In this document: positions 23,365 through 31,918 of the stretch, piece by piece
How positions within the stretch are numbered: the stretch's first letter is position 1
How the letters are laid out: each line of letters starts with the position of its first letter
Virus record (IMG/VR): IMGVR_UViG_3300042882_001139
Location: 62,001-123,067 of that record
DNA: 61,067 nucleotides
Reading direction: 5' to 3' (one strand)
Source of the DNA: an uncultured virus (IMG/VR IMGVR_UViG_3300042882_001139)
Lineage: Duplodnaviria > Heunggongvirae > Uroviricota > Caudoviricetes
Translations under genes and position numbers: made by a program
Notes under the pieces: model-generated
Told to the model about the DNA's origin: nothing
What the model saw: the letters and a program-made list of their open reading frames with translations, nothing else
Databases searched by the model: none

Positions 23365-24534
23365 TTAACTGTTAGCCAGTTCGTACAGTTTGGCCAACGG
23401 AAGCAGTGAATCTTCAGAGGCTTGTTTCACGACGGCCGTCGCACCGCTTTCTTGCAGCAGCCGGTCTAAAGTCATGGCCATGCCGCGATCAAGTGTGGGG
23501 ATAATCGCCGCGAGCTTGTCGCGGTCCATGTACACGCCACCAGCACTGACAGCGTCTACGAAGTCATCACCCAGCCATTCCCGGACGTCCTCAACCGCCA
23601 GTTTCTCAAGATCGGATAACGAGTAAACATTACCAGTTGTGGTTTCGACGTTGTCGGCCATAAACGCCCGAGCGACCTTTTCCGTGATAGCAAAGAGCAC
23701 CTCTTCAGGCCTGGACAGCCCGCCCGAATCGTACAGGCGATTAAGATGCGTATTCCTATCAAAAGTGTCGACCGCGCTCGCCAACTTAAGACGCACCTCG
23801 ACCGACCGGGCCCGTTCAGGGTTTTGGTCGATAGCGTCGGCTAACTTGGACAACTCACCCGCCAAGTCATGATACTTGCGCTGAGTAAGCCTTACGCGAT
23901 CTTTGAGCATGTCACTGGCAACCTTGGAAGCACAAACCCCCAGGCCAGCCGCGAGTGCCAGCGTATCGTCGGCCTCGCTAACGTCGGCGTCATACTGCGC
24001 CGCTTTGTTTAAGATTTTTGTGGCAATAACGTGCCGGTCGTTAAACGTAAACTCGTCACGGTACTTTTTAAAATGCGCCGCGGCAAATTTAACTTCAGTG
24101 GCGTTACGCAGCGGCCACTGGCGAACAGCCCCGCCCTCGCTAGCCCACACAATAGCGAAATCAGAATCGGGCAGCGTTGTCAGATCGGAGGCGTTCGAGG
24201 CGGCTACCTTCTCTTCCAGCCCGCGTACCAACCCGGCAATACCGAAGTATTCTGCGGCGGTATTAATACGTTGCCGGATCTCACCCGCAACCTTTTCGTT
24301 AAACTCAGCCTGCTTGTCCGCGAAGAATAACGCAGACATCCATGTTGCGGGACCGGTGTGACACGGGTAAAGTTTATTGTGCTGGTCAGCGTATAAATGA
24401 CGCGGAAGGTCTGTACCGACCAGTCGATCCTCGGATGCATTTTTAACAAAGTCGGGCGCGGCATACAGCGACGTTAAACGGTGCGTTTCGCGACCACTGA
24501 CGTCGTGTGCGTGATCCAGCGGAATATTCGTCAT
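23365..24534 (-). CDS. hypothetical jumbo-phage protein
   Basis: 389 aa from the ATG at 24534; two related blocks (YADQHNKLYPCH and FAIVW...WPLRNATEVKFAAAHF). Confidence 0.7.
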   Translation of the reverse strand: MTNIPLDHAHDVSGRETHRLTSLYAAPDFVKNASEDRLVGTDLPRHLYADQHNKLYPCHTGPATWMSALFFADKQAEFNEKVAGEIRQRINTAAEYFGIAGLVRGLEEKVAASNASDLTTLPDSDFAIVWASEGGAVRQWPLRNATEVKFAAAHFKKYRDEFTFNDRHVIATKILNKAAQYDADVSEADDTLALAAGLGVCASKVASDMLKDRVRLTQRKYHDLAGELSKLADAIDQNPERARSVEVRLKLASAVDTFDRNTHLNRLYDSGGLSRPEEVLFAITEKVARAFMADNVETTTGNVYSLSDLEKLAVEDVREWLGDDFVDAVSAGGVYMDRDKLAAIIPTLDRGMAMTLDRLLQESGATAVVKQASEDSLLPLAKLYELANS

Positions 24535-27163
24535 GGGTTTACCTACCTGTTTAATTCGCCGACATAACCACATTCGCGCCCTGTCGGCTCTTGGGGTAGC
24601 CCCGGAAACTCCTGCGTTTCCGGCTGTGGTTCTATGTCCATTATGTCAGGAAAATACCCTACATTTGTTTGACGATATTGTCACTGACGGTATCTGGCTG
24701 CACTGTAATTCGTGTTTAGCCCATGGAGATATCATAACCTTTGGGGCTCAAATCTGGAATACAAGTTTACCGCATGCCCTGTCAAAAATGGCGGAACTAG
24801 GGGTAATAACGCCGTCCGAAGCCGACAAAGCAGCGGCTGATTACGACCGGGCGTTTAGTCGTCAAAAAGCGGCTGAAACATTCTGGACGGCAGCGGCAAG
24901 TCAACTCTGGAATCACAGCGACGATTTGCTAGCCTGCCGGATCTACGACATCGGTTTAAAACCAGAGTATGACGTAACAAACCTTGTCGGAGCCGCACAT
25001 CCTGATCAAGTATTAAAGTTGTGTCGCGAACTCGGGCGAGCAAAGCCACGTCTAGCCCGTAAAGACGGCTCTAGTCTTGTGCTGCCGTATTACACGCTTC
25101 CGGGCCGCCTGTCTGGTTTCTTATTGCTCCATTACTCCGCTGACGCAGAAATGCGTAAAACATTTATCCCGGTCAGCGGGTATGACCGCCAACGCGTTGA
25201 TGCCGGTTATTGCTTCTTGCCGAATCTTTTATTGCCGCCACCGACCGTGCTAAAAAACAAACAGTTTGTCGTAGAGGACCAGCTGTGGGCATTAAAAGAG
25301 CAGTGCCGGCAATTTAAGTACGGCCTACCCGCACTGCCCATCGTCGCCGGGTACGCCGGGCCGGAGGCGATTAGTTACGGCACTAATTGGAGCGCCCTGC
25401 CACCCACGCCCAGATTTTTTCAGGGCAATGCCGCTACACCAGAATTACTGAGTCAGGCGGCCAATGGAAAAGGCTACGTAAGCGTCGTGGCTCCTGACGT
25501 CGCGGCCCGGCCTAGTTGCCGGTATACGCTGCAGTGTCTCGCAAAAATATGTAGTGCCGCGGATACTTGGCAAAGCGTATTGAATAAAACGCTCGCCGGG
25601 CACAACGAGATGACGTCGTACTCATTTGCGACAAAACTGGCTATCGAACATAGCCGGCTACAGTTGTTCTTTAAAAACCACGGCGATCAATTCTCTGAAG
25701 ACTTTGTGAAACGCGTACTGCAGACAATAGATCTGGCCCCGACAGCGCCGACAAGAACGCATAAAAAATGGGTTTTGGTCGAGCAGGACAATGCGTGGTG
25801 GAACCATGTCGGGCAGCAGGTGTGCAATGCCCGCGTGGTAATCACGCAAATTATGCAGGCAGACGACGGTGAAAAAATTTACGCCGGGCGTGTCTGCATG
25901 CGGGATTGGGAGATAACGTTCACAGAAAACGCACGACGAATCGAGCACATGGGGCTTCTTGCTTATGCAGCCGCCATCGCCGCCCCTCACGGGAAACTCA
26001 TCACCTACGACAGGTCCTGGAATAAGCGCAGCCACCTTATTTCTATACAACTGCACAGCCCCGTGCTCACGCTTGTTTCCACAAAAACAGGCTGGGACGA
26101 GCAGGCGAGCATGTTTCGTTTCCGTGACTATGCGTTCACCAATGCCGGGGAAACTATAAACACGCCGGCGATAATTAAACAATCACAGGCGGTTAGTTTC
26201 CCAGAGCCGCTCGATGCCGGCCCGATTGGCGTGCGGCGCTTTCTAACAGCAGAAAATAAGAACGCGTTTGTCTGGGGCGTCTTTGGCACCATAGCCGCTA
26301 ATTTAATTGCACCAATTGTCAGAAAAGATTGCGTCGCCACGGCTATATCTGGAGTCGCGTTTAATACCGCCGCTCGAATCGGGGCAGCACTTGGTTGCCA
26401 GCAGCGGGTGACATCCACACTGCACCGCGCCAGCGTCGCCGACTTCTTGCGTAAAAACTCGGCCGATTTACTCTGGCCGGTGTTTCTAGCCAGTGAGTTC
26501 AACGACGCCGACACAGCACCTAGCATTACACATATTCATAACAGACCGGTAATCGTGCGCATGCCAGAGTCCGGGGCGGTTGCCGCACTAGGTTACGGCT
26601 GGAACAAAATAAGCACCGGCGTAGCGCCCGACACGCTAAACGATTTTAGCGATTTGCGTTATGTACTGCCGGCCTATATCCGCCATACCCTGCTTAGCCG
26701 CATGAATCTGGTCGCCAAGTCACCAAATTTGGTCATCAGCGTTTTAACAGATTTGCACACATGGCTCGACGAGGTTTACGGCGCCACGTTTCATTTACCC
26801 CAAACGCTCCAGCAATTTGGCGTGTCGGAACGTGCCCACGAGGCTTTAATCCAAGAAATAGTTCGCGGCGTGCACCACGAAAAATTAGACGTAATTCCTA
26901 GGCCCCGGCGAAAAATGCAGCCAAAAAATTACCTGCTCCGCCGCAAAGAGTTTTGGTGGTTAAATCGCCGGGCCATAGATAACTATTTCACAAACGATAA
27001 AAATATTCCGCCAAACTGGCTCGGTGTTATAAACTTGCTAATTAATGACGGCGTGTTTGGCGGAGAAGAAACCGTCCAAGGTATGCCGGGCATTTTAGTC
27101 AGTACGCCGTGGTGTGATAACTACTGGACAAACAACGAGATTCCTGCAAGAGAAATTGGATAA
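24533..27163 (+). CDS. primase-like protein with N-terminal zinc-binding domain
   Basis: CPLC...WLHCNSCLAHGDII (CHC2-like) and LVLPYY..PGRLSGF (DnaG-like N-core); catalytic TOPRIM acids not clear. Confidence 0.5.
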   Translation: MGLPTCLIRRHNHIRALSALGVAPETPAFPAVVLCPLCQENTLHLFDDIVTDGIWLHCNSCLAHGDIITFGAQIWNTSLPHALSKMAELGVITPSEADKAAADYDRAFSRQKAAETFWTAAASQLWNHSDDLLACRIYDIGLKPEYDVTNLVGAAHPDQVLKLCRELGRAKPRLARKDGSSLVLPYYTLPGRLSGFLLLHYSADAEMRKTFIPVSGYDRQRVDAGYCFLPNLLLPPPTVLKNKQFVVEDQLWALKEQCRQFKYGLPALPIVAGYAGPEAISYGTNWSALPPTPRFFQGNAATPELLSQAANGKGYVSVVAPDVAARPSCRYTLQCLAKICSAADTWQSVLNKTLAGHNEMTSYSFATKLAIEHSRLQLFFKNHGDQFSEDFVKRVLQTIDLAPTAPTRTHKKWVLVEQDNAWWNHVGQQVCNARVVITQIMQADDGEKIYAGRVCMRDWEITFTENARRIEHMGLLAYAAAIAAPHGKLITYDRSWNKRSHLISIQLHSPVLTLVSTKTGWDEQASMFRFRDYAFTNAGETINTPAIIKQSQAVSFPEPLDAGPIGVRRFLTAENKNAFVWGVFGTIAANLIAPIVRKDCVATAISGVAFNTAARIGAALGCQQRVTSTLHRASVADFLRKNSADLLWPVFLASEFNDADTAPSITHIHNRPVIVRMPESGAVAALGYGWNKISTGVAPDTLNDFSDLRYVLPAYIRHTLLSRMNLVAKSPNLVISVLTDLHTWLDEVYGATFHLPQTLQQFGVSERAHEALIQEIVRGVHHEKLDVIPRPRRKMQPKNYLLRRKEFWWLNRRAIDNYFTNDKNIPPNWLGVINLLINDGVFGGEETVQGMPGILVSTPWCDNYWTNNEIPAREIG

Positions 27164-27168
27164 CGTCT

Positions 27169-27510
27169 ATGGCATATGATCGTCGACGGGCTGAACAATC
27201 CATTTTTAGCAAAAAAGACCACGACGACGGGTTGGACGACGATTTCATTGAAGAAGAGTGGCAGTTCGTCAGCGACAACGATGACGATGACGATGACGAC
27301 GATGACGACGTCTTATACAAGCCAAATGTCGACTGGTACGCCGACGAAGATGACGAAGACGAAGATGAGGATTACGAAGACGAGGATTACGAAGAAGAAG
27401 ATGACGAAGAGTCATTTAGCTGGAATGACGAAGACGAAGACGACGAAGACGAAGACGAAGAAGAGCCCGAGTACGAGCACGACTTTGATTCCGACGATTA
27501 CGATGACTAA
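27169..27510 (+). CDS. extremely Asp/Glu-rich small protein
   Basis: Long D/E runs with interspersed Y/W/F. Confidence 0.65.
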   Translation: MAYDRRRAEQSIFSKKDHDDGLDDDFIEEEWQFVSDNDDDDDDDDDDVLYKPNVDWYADEDDEDEDEDYEDEDYEEEDDEESFSWNDEDEDDEDEDEEEPEYEHDFDSDDYDD

Positions 27511-27515
27511 TTAAC

Positions 27516-27977
27516 ATGCAAACATTTCTGCCCCTGCCGAGTTTTCGGCGGTCGGCGGCGGTGCTGGACAATAAGCGTCTAGGCAAACAGCGCGTAGAGT
27601 GTAAACAAATACTGCTGTGCCTAGGCGTGCCGATTGGTGCCCATATGCCAAGCGTCTCTCGCTGGCGTAACCACCCGGCGGTGCAAATGTGGGCAGGCTA
27701 TGAAACAGCCCTGCTTGTTTATAGCATCGTCATGTGCCGTGAGTGGCGCCGCCGCAAGTTTACAGACAATCTATGCCGGGAATTTGAACATCGGTACTCA
27801 ATTATTAGACCGACAATAAAAGCAAATAATTACCCGCCGTGGTTTGGCGACGATGACTTTCATGCGTCTCACCGCGGCAATCTCTTGCGTAAAGATTACG
27901 CGCACTATTCCAAATTTGGCTGGATGGAAGAGATCTACCTGCCGTACGTATGGCCTACAAAACTGGAGCCCGTATGA
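27516..27977 (+). CDS. pyrimidine-dimer DNA glycosylase (DenV-like, MSMEG_6728 family)
   Basis: MQTFLP...LDNKRLGKQRVE...HPAVQMW...PPWFG...HASHRGNLLRKD. Confidence 0.8.
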   Translation: MQTFLPLPSFRRSAAVLDNKRLGKQRVECKQILLCLGVPIGAHMPSVSRWRNHPAVQMWAGYETALLVYSIVMCREWRRRKFTDNLCREFEHRYSIIRPTIKANNYPPWFGDDDFHASHRGNLLRKDYAHYSKFGWMEEIYLPYVWPTKLEPV

Positions 27978-28339
27978 CTGCTGAACACAAGGCTGTCCTG
28001 ATTGACCCGTACAAAGAAGAAGTCACAGACGTCACGTATAACGGCGACTACAAGCAAATCTATGAGCACATCAAGGTCGATTGTTTTGCGTTGGTGCGTC
28101 TGGCTGATGACGATGACGTCTTTGTTGACGACGAAGGCTTACTCAAACTCGAGCCCAGCACTAAGTTTTTTGCACTGCCCGACTACCCGCAACCGCTGGC
28201 GGGTTACGGTTTAGTTCTTGGCAATGATAACGAGGGCGAATCAATCAGTGCTCATCACGACGCGGCTTTTTACCGCGAACGCGTTAAATTCATGACCATG
28301 CGACAATTTGCGGCTATTAGCGCCATCGATTTTGGGTAA
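27974..28339 (+). CDS. DUF3846-like protein
   Basis: AVLIDP...VFVDDEGLLK...LAGYGLVLG; ATGA overlap. Confidence 0.6.
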   Translation: MTAEHKAVLIDPYKEEVTDVTYNGDYKQIYEHIKVDCFALVRLADDDDVFVDDEGLLKLEPSTKFFALPDYPQPLAGYGLVLGNDNEGESISAHHDAAFYRERVKFMTMRQFAAISAIDFG

Positions 28340-28351
28340 ACTGTGCGGATC

Positions 28352-28424
28352 GCCGGCGTGGCACAATTGGCAGCGCAACTGATTTGTAATCAGTAGGTTG
28401 CGGGTTCGACTCCCGCCGCCGGCT
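28352..28424 (+). tRNA. tRNA-Thr(UGU)
   Basis: GCCGGCG/CGCCGGC acceptor, ctgat-TTGTA-atcag anticodon arm, GGTTCGACTCC T-arm; no encoded CCA. Confidence 0.93.
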
Positions 28425-28447
28425 ATAGTTAAACTCGTGTGCCAGGT

Positions 28448-28909
28448 ATGGAGGCCTATATGGACGAGATTAACATTTACATCAAAGACATCAATCAATT
28501 GCGGCCGGTTGATGTCGCTGCTATTTGTTCGCGGCTTTCGTGGCCAGACTCAGGCAGTGCGAGCTCTATTCAAAAAGAACTGGATAAGCGTTACCTCAAC
28601 CCGCAGCCAGGCCCGCACCCCAACATGGCAATAGCCTTCGTGTGGCTTAAAGGTGTTTTAGTCGGCTGGGTGGGCACACGCCCATGGCGCGAGCATGTAA
28701 AAGACACGTTTGTCGCTGTGCAGACGGTGGAATGCTTTGTCGACCCGGCGTTCCGGCGGCGGGGCTTTGCTCGATTAGGCTTGCAGGCACTTATCAGCAC
28801 TGGTTATCTCGACAAAGAGAAACTAGTCGCGGGCTATGCAGATGATGTGCTTCCTCTCGCAACATCGTGCGGCTGTCGCAACGTCATTCTTGGCGACAGC
28901 GCTAAATAA
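28448..28909 (+). CDS. GNAT family N-acetyltransferase
   Basis: Acetyl-CoA motif A VECFVDPAFRRRGFA. Confidence 0.75.
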   Translation: MEAYMDEINIYIKDINQLRPVDVAAICSRLSWPDSGSASSIQKELDKRYLNPQPGPHPNMAIAFVWLKGVLVGWVGTRPWREHVKDTFVAVQTVECFVDPAFRRRGFARLGLQALISTGYLDKEKLVAGYADDVLPLATSCGCRNVILGDSAK

Positions 28910-28918
28910 CATACTTAT

Positions 28919-29728
28919 GGTCGGCTGGCGTAAGGTCAGGTCCGGCTCGGTATGGCGGCGTAAGGTTAGGTTTTTTCTTTCAAAACTTTATCGTTAGGTC
29001 GGGTCTGGTGACGTGAGGTGTTGTAACGTTCGATCGGGTATGGTTTTTTCTTTCAAAACTTTGTGGTTAGCTTCGGTCGAATGCCGTCGGGTTAGGTTTG
29101 GTACGGTGTGGCAGGGTTTTTCTTTTTCAAAACTGTAGCGTGGGGCAGGGTAAGTTGGGGTTTGGTCAGATCTGGTTTTTTCTTTCAAACATATAAGGTG
29201 TTGTAACGTCGTGTAGGGTCTTGTCCGGTACGGCATGGTACGGTATGGCGGGATCAGGTCAGGTATGGTTTTTTTCTCAACAAGCGTACGGCAGGGTATC
29301 GTTAGGCTCGGTTTTGTTTGGTTTTCTCTTCTCAAAATTTTGCGGTCAGGTCCGGTATCGTTGCGTTTTGTCCGGTAGCTTTCGGTATGGTTTTTTCAAA
29401 TAATTTGCGTTAGGTCCGGTACGGTTCGGTAGTGTCTGTTTTGGCAACGTTTGATTTCGTTCGGTAACGCATGGCGCTATTGGGTTTGGTTCGGTTTTTT
29501 CTTTCAAAACAATTTAGGGTGCGGTCTGGTTCGGTAGCGTAACGTCAGGCACGGTAAGGTCTGGTTTTCTCTTTCAAACAAAATAGGGTTTGGCTCGGTG
29601 GGGTGGCATAAGCTGGGGTTTGGTCAGGTCTGGTTTTTTCTTTCAAACAAAATATGGTCCGGTAAGGTCGGGTAACGTCCGGTAAGGTAACGCAGGGTGA
29701 CGTTGGGTTTGGTTTTTTCTTTCAAAAC
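28919..29728 (+). repeat. non-coding array of 11 units: (GGY-NN)7-17 pentamer tracts separated by a constant T-rich linker; putative guide-RNA array
   Basis: Linker GGTTTT(T/C)TCTTTCAAA(A)C-type starts at 28969, 29042, 29115, 29174, 29267, 29320, 29389, 29493, 29563, 29632 and 29711; the preceding tracts parse exactly into 10,10,10,8,14,7,9,17,9,9,11 pentamers. Confidence 0.9.
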
Positions 29729-29744
29729 AATTAGGGTAGGTTGC

Positions 29745-29777
29745 GGTTTTATGTGCTGCGGAAACTACACATAAACC
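29745..29777 (+). other. hairpin closing the array
   Basis: GGTTTTATGTG...CACATAAACC, between the array and the HNH start. Confidence 0.55.
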
Positions 29778-29788
29778 AGGGGTAACAA

Positions 29789-30106
29789 ATGGATTCAACG
29801 ACGTTAAATTATGCCGTGCGCATGGCCAGATATGACTGGTGTGAAAAGCGCACGCAACGTCTAGTGATTGACAACTATGAATGCCAAACGTGTTTGCACG
29901 ACGGATCTGTATATCAGCTCGAAGTGCATCACAAGACGTATGAACGGTTTGGCGAAGAGGATGTCGAAAAAGATTTAATTACGCTATGCAGCGAGTGTCA
30001 CGAAGCAATAACAAATGTAATACGAGCTCGTCGCTACAAAAACAAAGACTTGGGCTGTAATTACATTGTTCCCACGATTCATCAACGGAAGGACATAGAT
30101 CAATGA
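29789..30106 (+). CDS. HNH endonuclease
   Basis: CQTC...LEVHHKTY...DLITLCSECH; ATGA overlap with the next gene. Confidence 0.85.
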   Translation: MDSTTLNYAVRMARYDWCEKRTQRLVIDNYECQTCLHDGSVYQLEVHHKTYERFGEEDVEKDLITLCSECHEAITNVIRARRYKNKDLGCNYIVPTIHQRKDIDQ

Positions 30107-30795
30107 GTTGGGTTAATGTTGATTACAAGATCACCGGGGACGGCCCGATGGTTGTGAAAAACGTTCAGATGGCAAACCCGCTGAACAAGTTCTCTAAGGC
30201 GCTCAAGAGCGTCAGTTCGAAGCGCGTCAAGACCGACGCCGACCACATCGAGATGGGGCATATTGAGTTCCTCGGCAGCCTGCATATGCACGAGGAGTTG
30301 GGTCCCGTACTGCCCGGTGCGACCATCGTAGCAGCGATTAACGCCGCGGCTCGAAAGACCAAGGAAGGCCAGCTCGCCAAGTGCGCTGTGTTCGCGGCGC
30401 CCCCGGGATTCTTTAAGTTAGAGTACGCCGGTCCGCGCGAGCCGGAAGCAATGTTTGAAGACACGTCGCCCCGCCCGACTCCGGAAGCCGAAGGTTTCCG
30501 GTTCACCACGCTGGTGGCGCGGCAGCAGTCTCGCGTCGTCTCGACTCGGCCAATCTTCCATGACTGGTCGGCTGTTGTGTCGATTTCGTTCGAGGACTCA
30601 ATCATCAATTTTGCCCAACTTGATCGCTGGATCAAGAAAGCGGGCACGATGTGCGGCCTGTGCGAGTGGCGGCCTAGGTTCGGGCGCTTCACGGCTGATT
30701 GCCTCACGCCTGGCATGAGTGCCGTGTACGGCGAAGAGCCCACTGAGGCTGCGATGAAGAAGCGTCGTGCTTCGAAGTCGCTCGTCAAGGTCTGA
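30103..30795 (+). CDS. stand-alone RAMP/Cas7-like RNA-binding protein
   Basis: N-terminal strand YKITGDGPMVV, PVLPGATIVAAI (Cas7 PxIPG-like), thumb-like RVVSTRPIF and C-terminal G-rich loop GTMCGLCEWRPRFGRF. Confidence 0.7.
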   Translation: MSWVNVDYKITGDGPMVVKNVQMANPLNKFSKALKSVSSKRVKTDADHIEMGHIEFLGSLHMHEELGPVLPGATIVAAINAAARKTKEGQLAKCAVFAAPPGFFKLEYAGPREPEAMFEDTSPRPTPEAEGFRFTTLVARQQSRVVSTRPIFHDWSAVVSISFEDSIINFAQLDRWIKKAGTMCGLCEWRPRFGRFTADCLTPGMSAVYGEEPTEAAMKKRRASKSLVKV

Positions 30796-30844
30796 TTCCC
30801 GCGTGTTACAATAACTATGTAGTTACTTGTACACGGAGTTAAAA

Positions 30845-31090
30845 ATGAAACGCTATCACGAAGAAAAGCACATTCTAGAAAATCGCGCTAAGTTGCGCCG
30901 GCACTTACTTTGGTCTTTAATCGGAAATTGGCCAGAAGTAGAAGCCGGTCGATTCAGAAAGTCTTTACGTTGTGCTGGCTGCGCCCGAGCTCGTTGTCAG
31001 GTATGCCACCCGGAAAAATACCCCAAACGGCAACTGACTATTAAAGAACAGAAGTCAAATTACGACTTCAAAGATTACGAAACCACTTAG
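30845..31090 (+). CDS. small Cys-cluster protein
   Basis: CAGCARARCQVCHP; GGAG RBS. Confidence 0.55.
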   Translation: MKRYHEEKHILENRAKLRRHLLWSLIGNWPEVEAGRFRKSLRCAGCARARCQVCHPEKYPKRQLTIKEQKSNYDFKDYETT

Positions 31091-31098
31091 AGAAAAAA

Positions 31099-31413
31099 AT
31101 GACTGATTTTGTGCGTAACATCGAAGTAACAGCCTCTAATCTCGCTGATGCCACGCTCGCTGAAATGCGACTCGAAGATAACCGGATCGCGGTAAAGTTG
31201 GCGGCTATTGAAAGAATCATGGCTAGCGGCGACAATGCACTGACGGGCAAGCCGCACTCGTATTCGTCTGCAGAAGCGATCGTAAACACTGACGTGCAGT
31301 ATCAGGATTACCTTGCCGACATGCGTAACGCTGTCCGTGCCCGTATTCTTGCCCGCGGTAACTACGAGGCCAGCCTGGCCGCGGCCCGACTGCAGGAGGA
31401 TTCCCGTGTTTGA
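31099..31413 (+). CDS. hypothetical helical protein
   Basis: 104-aa ORF. Confidence 0.65.
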   Translation: MTDFVRNIEVTASNLADATLAEMRLEDNRIAVKLAAIERIMASGDNALTGKPHSYSSAEAIVNTDVQYQDYLADMRNAVRARILARGNYEASLAAARLQEDSRV

Positions 31414-31918
31414 CGAAGACACCAGCCCACTAGACGAATTTTTCCATCGTAGTTCTGACGGGCAGCCGGACTTTGAAAACCCAGGCGCCCCAGTTCTGCC
31501 TATGGAATGTTTGCGAGACTCAGCGATCAAGTTGTTCGATCACTACATTGCCGAGCAAAGCGGCATAGCAGTCGATGCCAACAGCGCGTCGTTTGAAGAA
31601 AAATGCGCGTTTCTGTCGCTGCAGGAAACCGAAACCATCGTGCGCGACTTCAGTGCCGCGGATAACGGAGCGCTGTTTGCTGTCGGTGGCAATTCCAAGA
31701 AGGCAGCCATGGAGCAACTGCATAAGTTGATGGAAGCACTGTTTACGCGAATCATGTCAAACGTCATTTCAGCAGGCGTCAGCAGAGATCTTATTGATGT
31801 CTCTTTCGATTCTGACAATGATAGTTTTGCGTTTTCCGTAAACGACAATGGCCGTCAGTTTGTTGCCAACCACAGAAGTCTATTTGAAAAGGACGATGAC
31901 GATGTACAAGCCGGGTGA
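31406..31918 (+). CDS. hypothetical acidic protein
   Basis: GTG start after AGGAGG. Confidence 0.6.
   Translation: MFDEDTSPLDEFFHRSSDGQPDFENPGAPVLPMECLRDSAIKLFDHYIAEQSGIAVDANSASFEEKCAFLSLQETETIVRDFSAADNGALFAVGGNSKKAAMEQLHKLMEALFTRIMSNVISAGVSRDLIDVSFDSDNDSFAFSVNDNGRQFVANHRSLFEKDDDDVQAG

Follow-up and report, generated by a model that had tools for sequence, protein, structure and literature searches.

VIPR is a CRISPR-related phage weapon that was first described in 2026 (10.64898/2026.04.26.720920). Filament assembly, gapped pairing that skips every third base, and silencing are shown for the system of Escherichia phage SUSP1 in preprints (10.64898/2026.04.26.720920, 10.64898/2026.04.26.720927, 10.64898/2026.10.15.759431). 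According to four preprints (10.64898/2026.04.26.720920, 10.64898/2026.10.15.759431, 10.64898/2026.04.26.720927, 10.64898/2026.10.21.760802), the one-base skip, its alignment with the wobble position and the absence of a PAM are established for VIPR, and the reported targets are satellites or prophages, including an excision recombinase. Since the skipped base is the wobble base, a guide reads positions 1 and 2 of the target codons. The first preprint assigns 18 of 20 guides of the SUSP1 clade to a satellite and 48 of 66 Pseudomonas fulva guides to prophages (10.64898/2026.04.26.720920), and another describes satellite-borne solo guides against host REP repeats as well as orphan guides against early vipr codons (10.64898/2026.10.15.759431). 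The NNx code (two bases read, one skipped) and an anti-satellite or anti-phage role of VIPR are therefore already in print. The words 'primase' and 'AlpA' are absent from the main texts of two of these preprints (10.64898/2026.04.26.720920 and 10.64898/2026.10.15.759431), whose supplementary target tables may list such targets, and a literature search returned no paper combining 'vrRNA' and 'primase'.

Here we describe a VIPR system in a stretch of 61,067 nucleotides (the window), which makes up the latter half of a virus record of 123 kb; the record is 60% complete and is contained in a 168-kb record (G001) at 99.99% identity. We propose, with a probability of about 0.7, that it is a phage VIPR in which units 3 and 10, and probably also unit 4, have as targets two primase or primase-polymerase families of other phages and small integrated elements.

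The locus and its guide array

The locus, with its repeat array, HNH gene and Vipr gene, is a VIPR system (Table 1). It combines a RAMP-like Vipr with thumb and G-loop, guides built of GGY/NN pentamers, and a minimal gene set in which a vap lies beside vipr and a CRISPR array is absent (no CRISPR-type repeat family was found in 27500-31500 of the window). The array is followed by the HNH gene and then by vipr, the start of which overlaps the 3' end of the HNH gene; an HNH gene is also found between array and vipr in a relative (L006). No sigma-70-type promoter was found in 28340-30900, and no Rfam family over the array. G-loop residues W189, R190, P191, G194 and R195 and thumb residue R149 of Vipr are invariant in 11 homologues.

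Table 1. Features of the VIPR locus (positions in the window)
Feature	Position	Strand	Remarks
VIPR guide (vrRNA) array, 11 units	28917..29725	+	NN+GGY pentamers, U-rich linkers
Unit 1, 11 NN	28917..28971	+	target not found
Unit 2, 11 NN	28990..29044	+	weak fit, first AlpA helix
Unit 3, 11 NN	29063..29117	+	E-x-Y-x-x-x-R-Y-F-T-V-[TS]-G motif of NrS-1/SaPI-type primase-polymerases
Unit 4, 8 NN	29137..29176	+	last five NN identical to those of unit 10
Unit 5, 15 NN	29195..29269	+	target not found
Unit 6, 8 NN	29283..29322	+	weak fit, AlpA recognition helix
Unit 7, 10 NN	29342..29391	+	target not found
Unit 8, 18 NN (longest unit)	29406..29495	+	6/6 viral matches at chance, 23-25/36
Unit 9, 10 NN	29516..29565	+	target not found
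Unit 10, 10 NN	29585..29634	+	spells F-S-G-G-K-G-F-H-L of second primase family
Unit 11, 12 NN	29654..29713	+	N-terminus-like composition, target not found
HNH nuclease gene, 105 aa, vap-like accessory	29789..30106	+	PF01844 E 2.6e-08; PHROG HNH families
vipr gene, 230 aa	30103..30795	+	SUSP1 Vipr (PDB 36pp) E 2.6e-26

The 11 units are in pentamer register, with 8-18 pentamers per unit, and each ends with GGT and a T/C-rich linker (a pyrimidine run of 11-16 nt, the end of which is CAA). GGY pairs at 5-nt spacing number 48; in 2000 shuffles such pairs averaged 2.0 and never exceeded eight. Among the 124 fixed trinucleotides, 83 are exactly GGY, 111 are NGY, and all 124 have the 3' pyrimidine; the loosest position is the first G (92 G, 23 C, 8 T and 1 A, i.e. 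32 of 124 differ), followed by the second G (13 of 124), and the pyrimidine never differs (0 of 124). Both residues that read the first G in SUSP1 are substituted in the window's Vipr in an alignment of the two proteins (H17 to K19 and D177 to E188), and the second-G contacts are kept.

With type II VIPR (phage SUSP1 and the P. fulva prophage) the locus shares the Vipr protein, the GGY/NN guides and the one-base skip at the wobble position. It differs in four respects: type II guides have a structured 3' tail of about 40 nt (a pseudoknot), whereas the window has 11 short units with U-rich linkers; the type II vap is DNA-binding, whereas the accessory gene here encodes an HNH nuclease; the first G of GGY is relaxed here, with both SUSP1 contacts substituted; and the decoded targets are primases. 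Types III and V resemble the locus in their nuclease accessory gene and in guides against viral sequences: the first preprint gives them a predicted nuclease vap (HNH Vap, legend of fig. S21), and describes them as enriched in cellular defence islands (10.64898/2026.04.26.720920), whereas the system in the window is carried by a phage that encodes RNA polymerase.

The same array is found, identical, in two other records (L003 and L004). In two relatives (L006 and L007, with Vipr 67% identical to that of the window) the linker is the same and the NN differ. Some guides are common to these two arrays (L006 3248-3610 and L007 3244-3574) with one or two pair changes and others differ, i.e. the guides turn over. 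Seven of the 20 guides in the three arrays begin with AT (24 of 219 pairs overall are AT), several of them duplicates (units 1, 2 and 11 of the window; L006 3270-3501; L007 3314-3356); such a start could be a mark of start-codon targeting or a part of the scaffold.

The original prediction had decoded the array by an NNx rule, which is right and is also a published property of VIPR, and its NN lists for units 2, 3, 6, 8 and 11 match the sequence; unit 1 lies upstream of the point at which it began. The five peptides that it derived are all compatible with these lists, but they are chosen readings and not unique ones: the NN list of unit 3 allows four peptides, those of units 2 and 6 allow 32 each, that of unit 11 allows 512, and that of unit 8 in reverse allows 8192. 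Matches of at least 80% to conserved but irrelevant genes occur by chance, which limits decoding by eye.

Guides compared with primase genes

Unit 3 had been read as a Prim-Pol motif, and this reading is borne out at the level of the family. A 14-base sub-pattern of the unit has at least 123 matches in at least 121 viral loci. Neither of the residues flanking the motif is part of this pattern; among the 123 matches listed, a Glu is found before the match in 78, a Glu before together with a Gly after in 74, and 77 matches lie in open frames of at least 130 codons. Out of ten such proteins scanned, nine have a Pfam domain of primase/helicase type (PriCT, NrS-1 HBD, D5_N, VapE-like, DUF5906 or DUF3987; in one of the nine below the cut-off only), and the tenth is VG15. 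Against a profile of 119 primase-polymerase (prim-pol) sequences unit 3 scores 26.8 bits, which was exceeded by none of 100,000 random strings and none of 5,000 shuffles, whereas the other 21 unit/strand tests gave p > 0.08; the query of this profile is itself a unit 3 match, so the profile is not fully independent. The last NN of the unit stands for Ser or Arg, which the 119 sequences never have at this position (Thr in 100%), and Ser is found in some of the viral matches.

The interior 18 bases of unit 3 gave two metagenome matches, one of them due to chance and the other (L306) agreeing with the unit at 20 of 22 bases, in sense orientation and with the wobble base skipped. The L306 gene, on a 1.9-kb contig, encodes an NrS-1-like prim-pol (E 2e-26 to PDB 7rr3/6k9a), and a HTH_17 excisionase gene lies upstream of it. 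The exact full 22 bases had no match in metagenome contigs and none in genome contigs, so L306 stands for the family and is not shown to be the actual target. Other searches with this unit were at the level of chance: the middle 16 bases gave nothing in viral contigs except one chance match, and at up to three mismatches 201 genomes of one phylum gave one match, compared with two for the control. A further candidate, L307, was rejected as a chance match with a stop codon.

The predicted target family of unit 3 is that of the NrS-1/SaPI PriRep-type prim-pols (PDB 6K9A, 6A9W, 7RR3, 7OLA), which have E-x-Y-x-x-x-R-Y-[FM]-T-[VI]-T-G in the primase domain; it is not a VIPR component. SaPI PriRep5 and phage NrS-1 are described as closest structural homologues (PMC9371898). 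A literature search on whether the unit 3 motif is catalytic gave nothing relevant. We take the motifs of units 3 and 10 to be both catalytic AEP motifs.

Unit 10 points to a second primase family. An 18-base scan of viral contigs with this unit gave a single match (L308), where a phage contig of 25 kb carries a primase-DnaB gene that agrees in frame at 18 of 20 bases. At the same site unit 4 agrees at 13 of 16 bases, too short a stretch for significance alone; given the NN that it shares with unit 10, unit 4 is probably another version of that guide, directed at one and the same motif. No other remaining unit matched L306 or L308 above shuffles (shuffles were made for L306 only). The near matches of units 3 and 10 are both wobble-aligned and in frame, at 20/22 and 18/20 and at family level. 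The protein motifs dictate the bases on either side of both sites, the two that were considered for a PAM. As the primase families of units 3 and 10 are not the same, at least two elements would be targeted.

With skips of zero to three bases no self-target above shuffles was found in the own genome, to which skip lengths other than one base were confined, and with the one-base skip the 20 guides of the three arrays had no self or sister-phage target above shuffled controls in four related records (G000, G001, G003 and G004); the records behind the self-target test are 60% and 82% complete. Unit 3 was found in none of G001-G004, and the guides had no match above shuffles to 29 Vipr homologues. 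The system is like those of SUSP1 and P. fulva in that it has no evident self-target and that a guide apparently reads conserved codons in an essential gene which another element carries.

AlpA-like guides and the remaining units

Units 2 and 6 had been called excisionase or AlpA-like, a call that is no more than suggestive. On a profile of 112 AlpA sequences unit 2 is placed at column 11 (8.4 bits) and unit 6 at column 25 (9.5 bits), with p values of 0.007 and 0.009 (0.010 and 0.024 in shuffles) among 22 tests with the family picked post hoc. The site of unit 6 lies three codons after that of unit 2, in exact register and without overlap. Unit 2 disagrees with three AlpA columns (Leu in 83%, Pro in 76%, and Thr/Val in 92% of the sequences), and a HTH_17 profile of 14 sequences gives p values of 0.16 for unit 2 and 0.10 for unit 6. 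Joint patterns of the two units match AlpA genes in four of six viral loci and four of nine genome loci, as expected by design, since the patterns were built on AlpA positions; in AlpA genes unit 2 agrees at up to 18/22 and unit 6 at 8-10/16, and the free positions do not follow.

Searches with unit 2 alone behave like chance. Its 14-base pattern gave no AlpA by inspection among the 120 viral matches listed, and in 401 genomes it gave 10 matches, none of them AlpA, compared with nine for the reversed-pattern control. The unit reaches 19/22 in unrelated conserved genes as often as the reversed control does; the genes matched in genomes are presumably GapR-like (five), Lon, a release factor, a response regulator and others. 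No AlpA gene is found in the own genome. It may be that units 2 and 6 together tile a single AlpA-type regulator gene in an element such as those that carry the primases, a suggestion that we make tentatively and at somewhat less than even odds.

Unit 11 was expected to be a protein N-terminus. Its composition gives a weak hint of this (under a model from 170 genes it has the lowest p of 13 guides, 0.028), but the target was not found among 29 viral matches, the best of which is 20/24 and none of which begins with the first three NN of the unit. Six of the 29 matches have one phage protein motif in common, the D-F-K of which does not fit these three NN; we assume that it is a phage PD-(D/E)XK exonuclease motif. 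The reverse-strand reading proposed for unit 8 finds no support, as all six viral matches are at chance level, and the idea of a serine-recombinase coiled coil for this unit was dropped on the same six matches. Units 1, 5, 7 and 9 were compared with the retrieved loci and with the prim-pol, AlpA and HTH_17 profiles, and matched none of these.

Target class, alternative readings and genomic setting

In the mechanism that we propose, the array would be transcribed and then cut or terminated at the U-rich linkers, giving about 11 guide RNAs. By homology, Vipr subunits would coat each guide, one per pentamer, hiding the GGY and pairing the NN with dsDNA. Units 3, 10 and probably 4 would direct the complex to conserved primase or primase-polymerase motifs in other phages and small integrated elements, where it might block transcription of the replication genes or recruit the adjacent HNH nuclease for cutting. 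The original prediction had placed the array in warfare between elements, with replication and excision genes of phage satellites or rivals as targets. The family matches of units 3 and 10 support replication genes of other elements as targets; the parts of the prediction on excision genes, and on satellites in particular, stay conjectural.

The targets could be mainly full-size competing phages and not satellites, a possible reading that we lean against. Many unit 3 family matches are on IMG/VR contigs of at least 30 kb, the unit 10 match is a phage primase-helicase gene, and six of the 29 unit 11 matches share one phage protein motif; however, scans of viral contigs return viruses only, the best unit 3 match has a small-element layout with Xis, and unit 11 misfits the D-F-K of the shared motif. 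The family of unit 3 is present in both phages and satellites, so it does not separate the two.

Two other readings are unlikely, to about the same degree. In one of them a single small satellite-like element (with AlpA/Xis, prim-pol and recombinase) is the target of most or all guides, as the original prediction implies and as in SUSP1: adjacent parts of AlpA are fitted in register by units 2 and 6, their joint patterns are found at AlpA loci (4/6 and 4/9), and L306 has Xis followed by prim-pol, but the unit 10 match comes from a phage contig of 25 kb, three AlpA columns disagree with unit 2, and the joint-pattern matches were expected by design. In the other, some of units 1, 5, 7, 8, 9 and 11 are decayed guides or are directed at genes of the host, at gene starts or at non-coding DNA. 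These six units have no family fit, the array includes units of 8 and 18 pentamers (outside the typical 9-16), and guides against host REP repeats or early vipr codons have precedents, whereas the guides had no match to the 29 Vipr homologues above shuffles. It is very improbable that all the motif likenesses are chance picks from ambiguous two-letter codes, even with up to 8192 peptides per unit and a unit 2 that matches unrelated conserved genes at 19/22 as often as its reversed control does, as unit 3 has only four readings and a profile p of at most 1e-5, and units 4 and 10 independently point to primase.

If the targeting of two primase families is right, it adds two families of replication primases to the natural targets of VIPR, which so far comprise recombinases and regulators of lysis and lysogeny, and the setting of this primase-directed VIPR is a large phage that encodes RNA polymerase, with an HNH partner. 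Should guides work at 85-90% match across a family, the wobble-blind code would allow broad, escape-resistant targeting. A bolder version, which we regard as speculative and quite unlikely to hold as a whole, is a nuclease-coupled phage VIPR that acts as motif-level immunity: it would read codon positions 1 and 2 of near-invariant primase motifs, use variant guides for one site (units 4 and 10), act by cutting or silencing on entire families of phages and satellites that are unrelated, rather than on one rival, with a few guides, and tile one AlpA gene with units 2 and 6, and the relaxed first G would be tied to the changed Vipr contacts.

The virus encodes RNA polymerase subunits and a terminase; searches with its RNA polymerase, methylase and peptidase led to no clear host taxon. 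We made several other observations on the genome. An 876-aa ORF at 24533-27163 of the window has no Pfam or PHROG match and is also found in the sister locus. A tRNA-Thr(TGT) is at about 28352-28424 (position mapped via alignment to the 168-kb record), upstream of the GNAT gene, which in turn lies before the array. The 168-kb record (G001) has a phage tmRNA (L301 1221-1577, minus strand; Rfam RF00023, 102 bits) and a tRNA cluster. An actin homologue of the Volactin family (PF25216, E 1.9e-61) is encoded at L129 8250-9284, and RNA polymerase genes are at L130 449-4822 and 5709-7595, one of them combining beta-type and beta-prime-type domains.
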